Assembly (NCBI GenBank): GCA_963847185.1
Contig: CAWJYV010000010.1
Span: 224,001-288,000 of the forward strand
From: an uncultured Methanosarcinaceae archaeon
GTDB taxonomy: Archaea > Halobacteriota > Methanosarcinia > Methanosarcinales > Methanosarcinaceae
Length of the DNA: 64,000 nucleotides
Reading direction: 5' to 3'
Positions 31,111-33,314 of this stretch are shown in pieces. A program made the position numbers and the translations under genes. Each line of letters opens with the position of its first letter. The first letter of the stretch is position 1. The notes under the pieces were generated by a model. That model was not told the origin of the DNA. It worked only from the letters and a program-made list of their open reading frames with translations, and made no database searches.

Positions 31111-31353
31111 ATGATGCGAGTGCAATTAAAAAGAGGGAGTGACGAAAAAGAAGAGGAACCTGAGAGGGGAAGTGACGAAATAAGTGAAAAAATAATAGAT
31201 CAGGCTGAAAGAGAAAGCAATGAAAAGTCTGGAAAGCCAACACAAACTTGTGAGGGAGAGGAACTTCCAGCAAGGGGAAGTGACAGAAAAAAGGATTATA
31301 TCGAAAGGGGAAGTGATAGTAAAGAAGATTTTCCTGGAAGAGGGAGCGGTTGA
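31111..31353 (+). CDS. Small hydrophilic protein with RGSD repeats
   Basis: GAGGAGG SD 8 nt upstream; RGSD-like motif appears six times in frame. Confidence 0.45.
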   Translation: MMRVQLKRGSDEKEEEPERGSDEISEKIIDQAERESNEKSGKPTQTCEGEELPARGSDRKKDYIERGSDSKEDFPGRGSG

Positions 31354-31515: not shown

Positions 31516-31655
31516 ATAGACAGAAAAATTACGGAAAAAACTGTAAATAAGGTCAAAAACAGCATCATGGAAAAAGACAATTTTAGATTTAAAATGAGAC
31601 CGGCTCAAATATTATATTGATTCTAAATTCAAACCTTATCTTATAAACAGCTTAG

Positions 31656-31945
31656 AGAAGAAGTGAGAGGTAAAACAGTTTTAGAGAGGGATTTGCCTCT
31701 CACTTCTTTTTGCTTCTGGTTTCAGAACCGAGAAAGAGGAATGGCGAACCTCCTTTCCCGGATCCTTTAAGAAACCTCTCTCGGGCCGAAGACTGAGGAA
31801 TGGCAAAAAACCTCAATCACCTATTCTTCCGTGAGGGGTTCCCTTTCATAGAGGGCTGGGTTGAGGAAATGGCGAACCTCCTTTTCCTTCCTCTATCGTT
31901 TTCGCTAAATGCTACTCATGAACCCCATTCAATATTAGCATTTAG
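31656..31945. ncRNA. Candidate structured sRNA with five hairpins, three capped by GAGG-AAUGGC(G/A)AA-CCUC
   Basis: Motifs at 31736-31752, 31795-31814 and 31863-31880; flanking long stems at 31656-31710 and 31905-31945. Strand unresolved. Confidence 0.6.
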
Positions 31946-32377
31946 AACTACATGTTATAGAACATCTGTCATATATAAAACATAAATGGAAATGATTTTT
32001 CTATTTCTTTGATGTAATAAAAGGCACTCAAAATTTTTAAGTGATTTATCGCCTAGTATACTAAAATTTCCCGCGGACAAAGCCCCAATTATTTTCTTCG
32101 CCCTTGAAATGCCAGCTTCAATTAAAATTAGCCAGCTTTAAAGAAAAGATATTTATATAAGGAAGTTCAAACGAGTGAGGCTATATTTTCTTATCGCTTC
32201 ATCCGTTTAGCTTACATTTCTATATCTTTTATTATCTTTCTAATTCTTTATCCTTTCTATATTCCTCAACAATATAAAAATTTTGCTATTATCCCTTCTC
32301 CTAATGGATACTTATATCTTTATGTGTACTTATGTCTTCATAGCATATTACACTTTCTTTATCCATTTGTGAGCAAT

Positions 32378-32858: not shown

Positions 32859-33314
32859 TTATCTGCTGCAGCTTGAGCTTGAACAGCTTGAACACTTATA
32901 ATTAATTATAACCTTTGCTGTAGCGGTTTTTCCGTATTTGTTTGTTACTTTGTAGGTAAAGCTGTCTGTAATGGTACCAGTCTTACAGGAAACCGGATAA
33001 TAACAGAAGTAACCGTTGCTCTTCATAGCTACTTTTGCACCTTTTGCAGTTTTGATGGATCCGGTAGTAGTGACTTTGAGGCCGCATCCTTTGTCATTGG
33101 ATAATACATTACCGCACTTTTTAGAAGGAGTGAATTTGAATGTATCTGCTTTTGCAACAGTCTTGCATGCGCTGCAAGAACTTGAACAGCCACTTGAACA
33201 GCTACTGCACGAACCTGTACTACATGAACTTTTACTGCATGCAGCTGCTCCTGTCATGGACATGACAAAGAAGATTAACGTGAAAATACATAATGTTTTC
33301 ATTATAGTTTTCAT
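32859..33314 (-). CDS. Secreted Cys/Ser-rich protein with a Big_9/cadherin-like Ig domain
   Basis: Signal peptide, CSKSSCSTGSCSSCSSGCSSSCSAC, NVLSND...G.F.Y...TDSFTYKV Ig-like motif, and a CSSCSSSSCSR tail. Confidence 0.8.
   Translation of the reverse strand: MKTIMKTLCIFTLIFFVMSMTGAAACSKSSCSTGSCSSCSSGCSSSCSACKTVAKADTFKFTPSKKCGNVLSNDKGCGLKVTTTGSIKTAKGAKVAMKSNGYFCYYPVSCKTGTITDSFTYKVTNKYGKTATAKVIINYKCSSCSSSSCSR

Follow-up and report, generated by a model that had tools for sequence, protein, structure and literature searches.

Introduction

Bacterial multi-loop small RNAs (sRNAs) such as NfeR1, the cuckoo/ar14 RNAs and LhrC carry redundant identical loops that pair with translation initiation regions, the loops being CU-rich and complementary to the Shine-Dalgarno (SD) sequence. 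In archaea, sRNAs with known targets are few, and three are named for Methanosarcina mazei (10.1101/2025.10.28.685009, PMC5867862). The nitrogen-induced sRNA154 is a trans-acting, genus-conserved RNA that presents conserved loops on several stem-loops to the mRNAs of one pathway, with one loop directed against the ribosome-binding site (RBS), and sRNA41 masks RBSs in the ACDS polycistrons (both PMC5867862). sRNA162 is tied to the switch from methanol to methylamines; it acts indirectly, via the regulator MM2441, and methyltransferases are not among the direct targets predicted in that account (PMC3510493). A further RNA, sRNA124, is catalogued merely as an abundant transcript with two Ribo-seq ORFs, and the main text of PMC11456600 does not name it. 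In the literature searched we found no function or target for sRNA124; subscription papers, theses and further supplements could hold one.

Here we analyse an RNA element in a 64,000-nt stretch of DNA from an uncultured Methanosarcinaceae archaeon (the window). Judged from its sequence, the element is the orthologue of M. mazei sRNA124, and we will argue that its loops very probably pair in trans with methylamine-methyltransferase mRNAs. The catalogue entry is already known; the modular, pathway-wide match to the genes of methylamine methanogenesis is new. sRNA124 would work like sRNA154 and sRNA41, yet it is neither of them. Unlike sRNA154, it is not nitrogen-responsive (log2FC ~0.1, PMC11456600), its predicted targets lie in carbon and energy metabolism, and it has three anti-start-codon loops instead of anti-SD ones. 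It resembles sRNA41 in the predicted masking of internal-cistron initiation sites of catabolic operons, but differs in sequence and targets, and its five modules divide the labour. With sRNA162 it shares the link to methylamines, its predicted targets being methylamine genes, but it matches the methyltransferase mRNAs directly. To the bacterial RNAs it is similar in the redundant-loop design, with no sequence relationship and in an archaeal host.

Results

The element is an sRNA gene of about 295 nt with five hairpins, H1-H5 (Table 1), and in an alignment of 47 loci the conserved stretch extends from about 31660, through the TATA box and the block upstream of it, to about 32050. A stand-alone transcript with the predicted ends given here is indicated by the conserved TATA box, the 3' hairpin with its pyrimidine tail, the variable flanks and the annotation in M. 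mazei. H5 and the tail are likely a terminator. The AT-rich block is likely to hold a BRE plus regulator sites, and no strong second copy of it was found in the same genome.

Table 1. Positions of the RNA gene and its parts in the window
Feature	Position	Strand	Remarks
Small RNA gene, orthologue of M. mazei sRNA124 by sequence	31652..31948	-	limits from conservation; ends predicted
Putative TATA box (TTTTATATAT on minus)	31971..31980	-	23 nt above the predicted start; conserved in the alignment
Conserved AT-rich block	31981..32050	-	upstream; kept in genus and sister genus g6
H1	31905..31945	-	loop and 3' arm (31904-31931) complementary to the mtbC1-mttB1 leader and the mtbC2/mtbB2 junction
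9-codon ORF in H1	31912..31941	-	counterpart of sORF_252; not conserved as a peptide
H2, tip 31863-31880	31848..31896	-	loop of the UUCGCCAUU type, anti-start codon
H3, tip 31795-31814	31769..31844	-	loop UUUUUUGCCAUU
H4, tip 31736-31752	31728..31761	-	GGUUCGCCAUU, complements the mtmC start if codon 2 is GCG
H5, then pyrimidine tail	31658..31708	-	loop 31682-31694, anti-SD complementary to the mtbA ribosome-binding site

The assignment to the minus strand is based on the conserved promoter, the accessibility of the loops and the published annotation of the same strand in M. mazei. Folding energy by itself points the other way: the region folds better than 100 of 100 shuffles on both strands (z of -3.98 on plus and -3.08 on minus), and the minimum free energy is lower on minus in 7 of 44 homologues, with plus favoured in 37. 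The three tips stand on separate stems in the minus-strand fold, not in the plus-strand fold, and they are unpaired with p>=0.75 in 128 of 132 cases on minus compared with 93 of 132 on plus. The initial annotation had suggested that the plus-strand tips mimic an SD plus AUG, and this reading is rejected, since the TATA-like box on that side is not conserved and the tips are less accessible. Both TATA-like boxes that it listed do exist, but only that at 31971-31980 is conserved among the 47 loci. Its other suggestion, that the minus-strand tips are able to pair with translation starts, is borne out by the conservation of the loops and by transcription of the minus strand in M. mazei.

We also considered a cis-element of the aldehyde dehydrogenase operon, for which conservation upstream of that operon had been proposed as a check. 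We reject this on account of variable synteny: the genes flanking the RNA vary widely among loci, and the operon, which lies downstream of the RNA in at least five loci from at least four genomes, is not a fixed neighbour. Two other ORFs lie close by. A low-complexity ORF of 80 codons with RGSD-like repeats (window 31111-31353, plus strand) faces the 3' end of the RNA and has similar counterparts in several relatives, and upstream of the RNA there is a Cys/Ser-rich, secreted-looking ORF of 151 aa (window 32859-33314, minus strand), which has no NCBIfam match and a paralogue on contig C8.

In eight environmental RNA runs the contigs lie mainly inside 31671-31934, a weak hint of a discrete transcript. 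The contigs of run X12 likewise end at the RNA, so that this run does not serve as a DNA control. The contig-derived depth in run X3 is 18,730 across the RNA and about 10 on the flanks, which is not an expression level. Apparent 'skips' of 136-158 nt in the RNA contigs were rejected as artefacts in which the repeated tip is misplaced, from related strains: their short side is 21-24 nt, and the inserted letters are those of the relatives' H2 stem.

The orthology with sRNA124 runs from the window to the homologue in genome G010 (L043, 75% identity, E 9e-63) and from there to the printed sRNA124, which is identical by eye. The M. mazei RNA has the same strand, length and five hairpins as the window element; its annotation starts 9 nt further up and has the same end. 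It is given as 301 nt on the same strand, with RNA levels of 35,475-65,410 rpkm and a TE of 0.03-0.12 (PMC11456600, supplement file 3). The novelty seen initially is in this way reduced, not removed, as the RNA is catalogued but not characterised. The Rfam/Infernal search called for in the initial annotation gave no matching family: with release 15 (4,227 models), there were 0 matches in the window above the gathering threshold and 13 weak ones, all far below it. We take Rfam to include the sRNA154 family.

We now consider the hairpins themselves. The three tips reported to begin at 31736, 31795 and 31863 were found at exactly these positions, and the pattern GAGGA{2,3}TGGC-N1..9-CCTC has four occurrences in the 4.04-Mb genome, three of which are in this element. 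That conserved loops sit on divergent stems holds among the homologues as well, where the GCCAU core is present in 146 of 147 tips (tallied from 51 loci, two loci with four motif matches being excluded). Of the two outer stems, the 10-bp one is perfect as claimed (31905-31914/31936-31945). The 3' stem is located where it was said to be; its core consists of 11 Watson-Crick pairs (31660-31670/31696-31706), and on the minus strand it extends to 13+3 pairs. The consensus fold contains the tips and the outer hairpins only, because the middle stems are unalignable, and a two-sided change is found in 5 of 40 pairs. The wobble evidence, described initially as mixed, is so in the homologue alignment too. 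Two other points have to be revised. The tips were thought to be anti-AUG/anti-SD sequences, but their CCUC is paired inside their own stem; they are anti-start-codon loops, and the true anti-SD loop is in H5. Nor are the outer stems mere brackets, since H1 and H5 hold the longest target matches.

Full-length homologues are present in 44 of 59 Methanosarcina genomes, the genus being identified from named contigs that carry the motif, and in all six genomes of the sister genus g6. The DNA search of the 59 genomes gave 49 matches: the 44 full-length ones, an insertion form in G029, a degenerate form in G047 and three short chance matches. A fragment of the RNA lies at a contig end in g5. BLAST against 177 family genomes found no credible homologue outside Methanosarcina (g1), g6 and the g5 fragment, a search that remote homologues could escape. 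In the G029 homologue (L045) some 80 additional bases separate H2 from H3 and the 5' strand of H1 is missing, and in the G047 RNA (L046) the loops of H2 and H4 are lost and that of H5 is rewritten.

Six genomes that are 73-92% complete (G020, G021, G044, G045, G048 and G049) have no match for mtmB, mtbB, mtbA and mtbC1, and all of them are without the RNA; three of the six keep mtaB matches. There are also seven genus genomes, including G041 (98% complete), in which some of these methylamine genes are present yet an RNA match is absent. All these co-occurrence counts are uncorrected for kinship, and the genomes are kin.

For the target search, we scanned the start regions of the 3,294 genes predicted in the window's own genome (G000) with an in-house gene caller, accessibility being obtained by local folding. 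The H5 loop has a perfect 13-nt complement over the SD of mtbA (NF041608), at -17 to -5. By duplex energy mtbA ranks first of 3,291 starts, with accessibility included it ranks third of 3,289, and none of 1,000 shuffles gives as good a match. The site AGAGAGGG is found upstream of mtbA at 47 of 49 genus loci, at all six in g6 and at both in g5, which makes 55 of 57 mtbA loci in RNA-bearing genera, and at none of the 13 outgroup loci, which come from five genera lacking the RNA.

Loop and site have also changed together. In g6 the H5 loop has A to C and the mtbA site U to G, and in G047 both are rewritten. When the loops are swapped, the best partner of those of G000, g6 and G047 is in each case the mtbA of the same origin (-21.2 vs -16.9/-9.3, -18.6 vs -14.7 and -13.5 vs -6.2 kcal/mol, respectively), the new G047 loop being a generic anti-SD whose match is equalled or beaten by 104 of 3,291 starts. 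The co-variation comes from a few events, in g6, G047 and G019/G016, and uncompensated H5 variants occur in G001, G011 and G013. The mtbA gene itself begins with AAUGGCA at both g5 loci and at 15 of the 49 in the genus (L119-L168, L187), which gives an extra H2-H4 site beside that of H5. The mtbA leader of G047 (L165) is rewritten and contains an ORF of five codons, the stop of which abuts the mtbA start.

The tips of H2-H4 match the AAUGGC starts of mttB, mttC, mtbB, mtbC2 and mtmC, genes whose family assignments were confirmed. Starts with AAUGGCA are found in 7 of 13 methylamine genes (a count that includes paralogues, which are not independent), compared with 54 of all 3,294 predicted genes and 14 of 200 strong-SD controls, and five of the ten AAUGGCAAA starts belong to methylamine genes. 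The H3 loop is the exact complement of the commonest mttB start and a near-complement of the leader uORF start discussed below. Across genomes, the mttB start is the exact 12-nt complement of H3 in 20 of 32 loci and begins with AAUGGCAAA in 31, and mtbB starts with AAUGGCAAC in 20 of 22. The mtmC start is AAUGGC(A/G)AA in 21 of 22 loci, but a perfect complement of H2/H4, with GCG as codon 2, in only two; the C in H2/H4 mismatches the usual second codon, GCA. In the scan with H4, the methylamine genes come at rank 196 or worse. The gene at G000:C7:181910-182689 (minus), which we take to be pylD, has two candidate sites at its start, which would pair with H2/H4 (rank 21 of 3,289) and with H3, respectively. 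In the assembly, the mtmB copy behind mtmC1 is split in two (G000:C7:172490-173841), and two other copies are whole.

The longest complements, those of H1 to methylamine mRNAs, measure 10-18 nt. Among 3,284 upstream regions, the mtbC2/mtbB2 junction ranks first and the mtbC1 leader fourth for the H1 arm, with 0 of 300 shuffles as good, and in 43 of 52 genomes H1 has a perfect complement of at least 10 nt in its own leader. Where H1 has an extra U, the leader base opposite is A in 25 of 26 genomes; without the extra U this is the case in 7 of 16.

The mtbC1-mttB1 leader is the trimethylamine (TMA)-responsive MM_1687 leader (PMC3407599, PMC11456600), in which Ribo-seq has revealed two translated uORFs (PMC11456600, PMC11549558). 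The uORFs are left unexplained in the account of PMC11549558, which describes no riboswitch. After correction of the start codon, the leader has about 276 nt (414 minus 138; PMC11549558), so that the sites at -253 to -200 lie within the transcript. These sites run antiparallel to the RNA: GGGAUU for H5, the AAUGGCA uORF start for H2-H4, and the H1 site. The region predicted to pair with H1 is in the leader uORFs, 200-250 nt above the mtbC1 start and off its RBS. This module is present in 47 of 50 genus leaders and all six g6 leaders, and in neither of the two outgroup leaders that we could place; of the 70 leader loci, 11 had no mtbC match and were dropped. It has decayed in G006, G057 and G047, the first two of which keep the RNA.

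Some further features of these regions can be mentioned. mtbC1 apparently starts at a conserved AUU in 57 of 57 g1/g5/g6 leaders (L116, G000:C7 ~373,308; L205-L262), and at AUG in two outgroup loci; the tables for M. mazei already give the MM_1687 start as ATT (PMC11456600, PMC11549558). Several TCATGA palindromes, which could be hairpins or protein sites, run through the mtbC1 leader (G000:C7 373,500-373,330). Between mtbC2 and mtbB2 there are three TGAACCC repeats complementary to the H1 loop (G000:C10:201,150-201,290, L118), and at least one such repeat lies upstream of mtbB in 12 of 22 loci.

Discussion

Repression is probably the main outcome of the pairing, because pairing over SD sequences and start codons usually blocks initiation, as with sRNA41 and sRNA162, and the RNA is likely to act as a brake on the whole methylamine pathway. 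H5 would cover the SD of mtbA, which encodes the amine-specific CoM methyltransferase common to all methylamine routes, and H2-H4 would cover the AAUGGC(A/G)A starts of mttB, mttC, mtbB, mtbC2 and mtmC. H5, H2-H4 and H1 would bind the three adjacent sites of the MM_1687 leader, over the upstream mini-ORFs. The predicted result is less translation initiation on methanol or acetate.

It is important to note that the TMA induction itself is transcriptional, which would place the RNA in a second layer of control, below the transcriptional repressor AmzR; its effect would be overcome once methylamines raise the levels of the target mRNAs. AmzR accounts for the TMA induction, and deletion of amzR falls short of full TMA-level activity (10.1101/2025.05.05.652248). 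The TMA induction of MM_1687 takes place at the transcript level, and reporter protein is already present before induction (PMC11549558).

The ratios of ribosome footprints to RNA in methanol-grown M. mazei, which we obtained by dividing the corresponding supplement rows of PMC11456600, are compatible with a dampening of translation but are no proof of it. They are 3.3 for mtbA, 2.4 for mtbC1, 3.6 for mttB1, 5.1 for mttC1, 6.6 for mtmC1 and 3.3 for mtbB, compared with 42.7 for mtaA1, 27.7 for mtaB1, 11.6 for mtaC1 and 38.7 for mcrA. The mRNA counts of mtbA and its methanol paralogue mtaA1 are similar (566 vs 501), but the ratio of mtbA is 13-fold lower. Ten arbitrary genes, however, give 1.3-10.4, a range that includes all the targets (2.4-6.6), and repression on methanol would therefore be at most partial. 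Furthermore, mcrA and mtaB1 also start with AUGGCAGC (AUGGCA), and their high ratios indicate that such a short seed is not sufficient for silencing.

Per base, the RNA exceeds the mtbA mRNA about 290-fold. In M. acetivorans, the mttB mRNA rises about 45-fold on TMA (log2FC 5.5, PMC13663744). It is speculative, and mixes species, to suppose that such a rise could bring the leader near the level of the RNA and so lead to titration. On these lines one can tentatively picture, as a possibility that we hold doubtful, a switchboard of five modules for the whole pyrrolysine-dependent methylamine pathway, with one loop devoted to the mtbA SD, three to the methyltransferase and corrinoid starts (pylD perhaps included) and the long arm to the MM_1687 leader. 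On its release by AmzR, this leader would pair with all three modules simultaneously and sequester the RNA, thereby freeing the rest of the regulon in the manner of a threshold switch. If true, this would be an sRNA-sponge circuit for which we found no archaeal report in the literature searched; it would account for what the widely used p1687 leader does and turn amine sensing into a threshold switch.

Apart from this circuit, one of the most abundant catalogued M. mazei RNAs gains a precise, pathway-wide set of predicted targets, and this bears on the post-transcriptional control of methylamine genes that 10.1101/2025.05.05.652248 and PMC11549558 leave open. The base-level predictions and the natural compensatory variants make the proposal testable in laboratory strains amenable to genetics, and they bear on the p1687 expression system.

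Among the alternatives, the one that survives best keeps the same pairing but ends differently: some targets would be stabilised or activated by the RNA, perhaps because it blocks the upstream ORFs of the leader or masks RNase sites, or the leader would mainly trap the RNA. There is a precedent in sRNA154, which works in both directions and stabilises or activates nifH, nrpA and glnA1 (PMC5867862). The position of the longest pairing, on the translated uORF region and not on the mtbC1 RBS, fits this option, as does the fact that the targets are still translated on methanol. We nevertheless consider it unlikely, since H5 has its site on the mtbA SD and H2-H4 theirs on start codons, where pairing normally blocks initiation.

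A protein-titrating RNA, whose repeated GCCAU loops would capture a single RNA-binding protein in the way of CsrB or RsmZ, is quite improbable. It would agree with three near-identical exposed loops on divergent stems and with the very high abundance of the RNA, but it leaves the 13-nt complement of H5, the 10-18-nt complements of H1, the matched changes and the co-absence unexplained. Moreover, sponges of the CsrB/RsmZ type have repeated GGA loops, and the loops on the transcribed strand here are GCCAU-based.

A small-protein mRNA or dual-function RNA is highly improbable. Two ORFs on sRNA124, sORF_252 and ORF_08 (91 codons, with three RFAIP repeats), are listed as translated after curation in the supplements of PMC11456600, but with the TE given above, and the empty proteomics columns of its tables lend them no support. 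Across 51 loci, the tips share a common frame in 6, with about 5.7 expected by chance, and the long frame is open in one. The H1 ORF is intact in most of these loci, but in at least six it has a frameshift or no start, and its stop shifts with a 1-nt indel (in six loci the scan chose a wrong upstream ATG). Ribo-seq footprints do exist; a conserved protein product was not found among the 51 loci, where the frames are random and the ORFs broken. As the ORFs are not conserved, the conserved function lies in the RNA.

We give just as little weight to the idea that the matches stem from a common DNA operator, or from an ancient inverted copy of the mtbC1 leader, without RNA-RNA pairing. The three leader sites are indeed collinear with the RNA in reverse, and the TCATGA palindromes in the leader could be counted in its favour. 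However, the mtbA SD site and those at start codons of five kinds sit in different operons, the variants retain G-U pairs and bulges, and loop and site co-change in g6 and G047. An origin of the leader sites as an inverted copy is, besides, compatible with pairing in trans. It is scarcely conceivable, finally, that the RNA mimics the A-loop helix of 23S rRNA as a decoy for a helicase or methyltransferase: a stretch of the genome's own 23S, presumably helix 92, resembles the tips (7-nt GUUCGCC with H2/H4, and 11 of 13 positions with H3 by eye), but the invariant GCCAU differs from the 23S sequence and is not the rRNA loop, and the U-run of H3 is variable in length.

We also looked for pairing of the RNA to the tRNAs and rRNAs of its own genome, and found only chance-length ATGGC matches. 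The contigs of G000 carry at least five divergent genes for tRNA-Cys(GCA) (ARAGORN records 1-1, 1-4, 2-1, 8-1 and 8-2).
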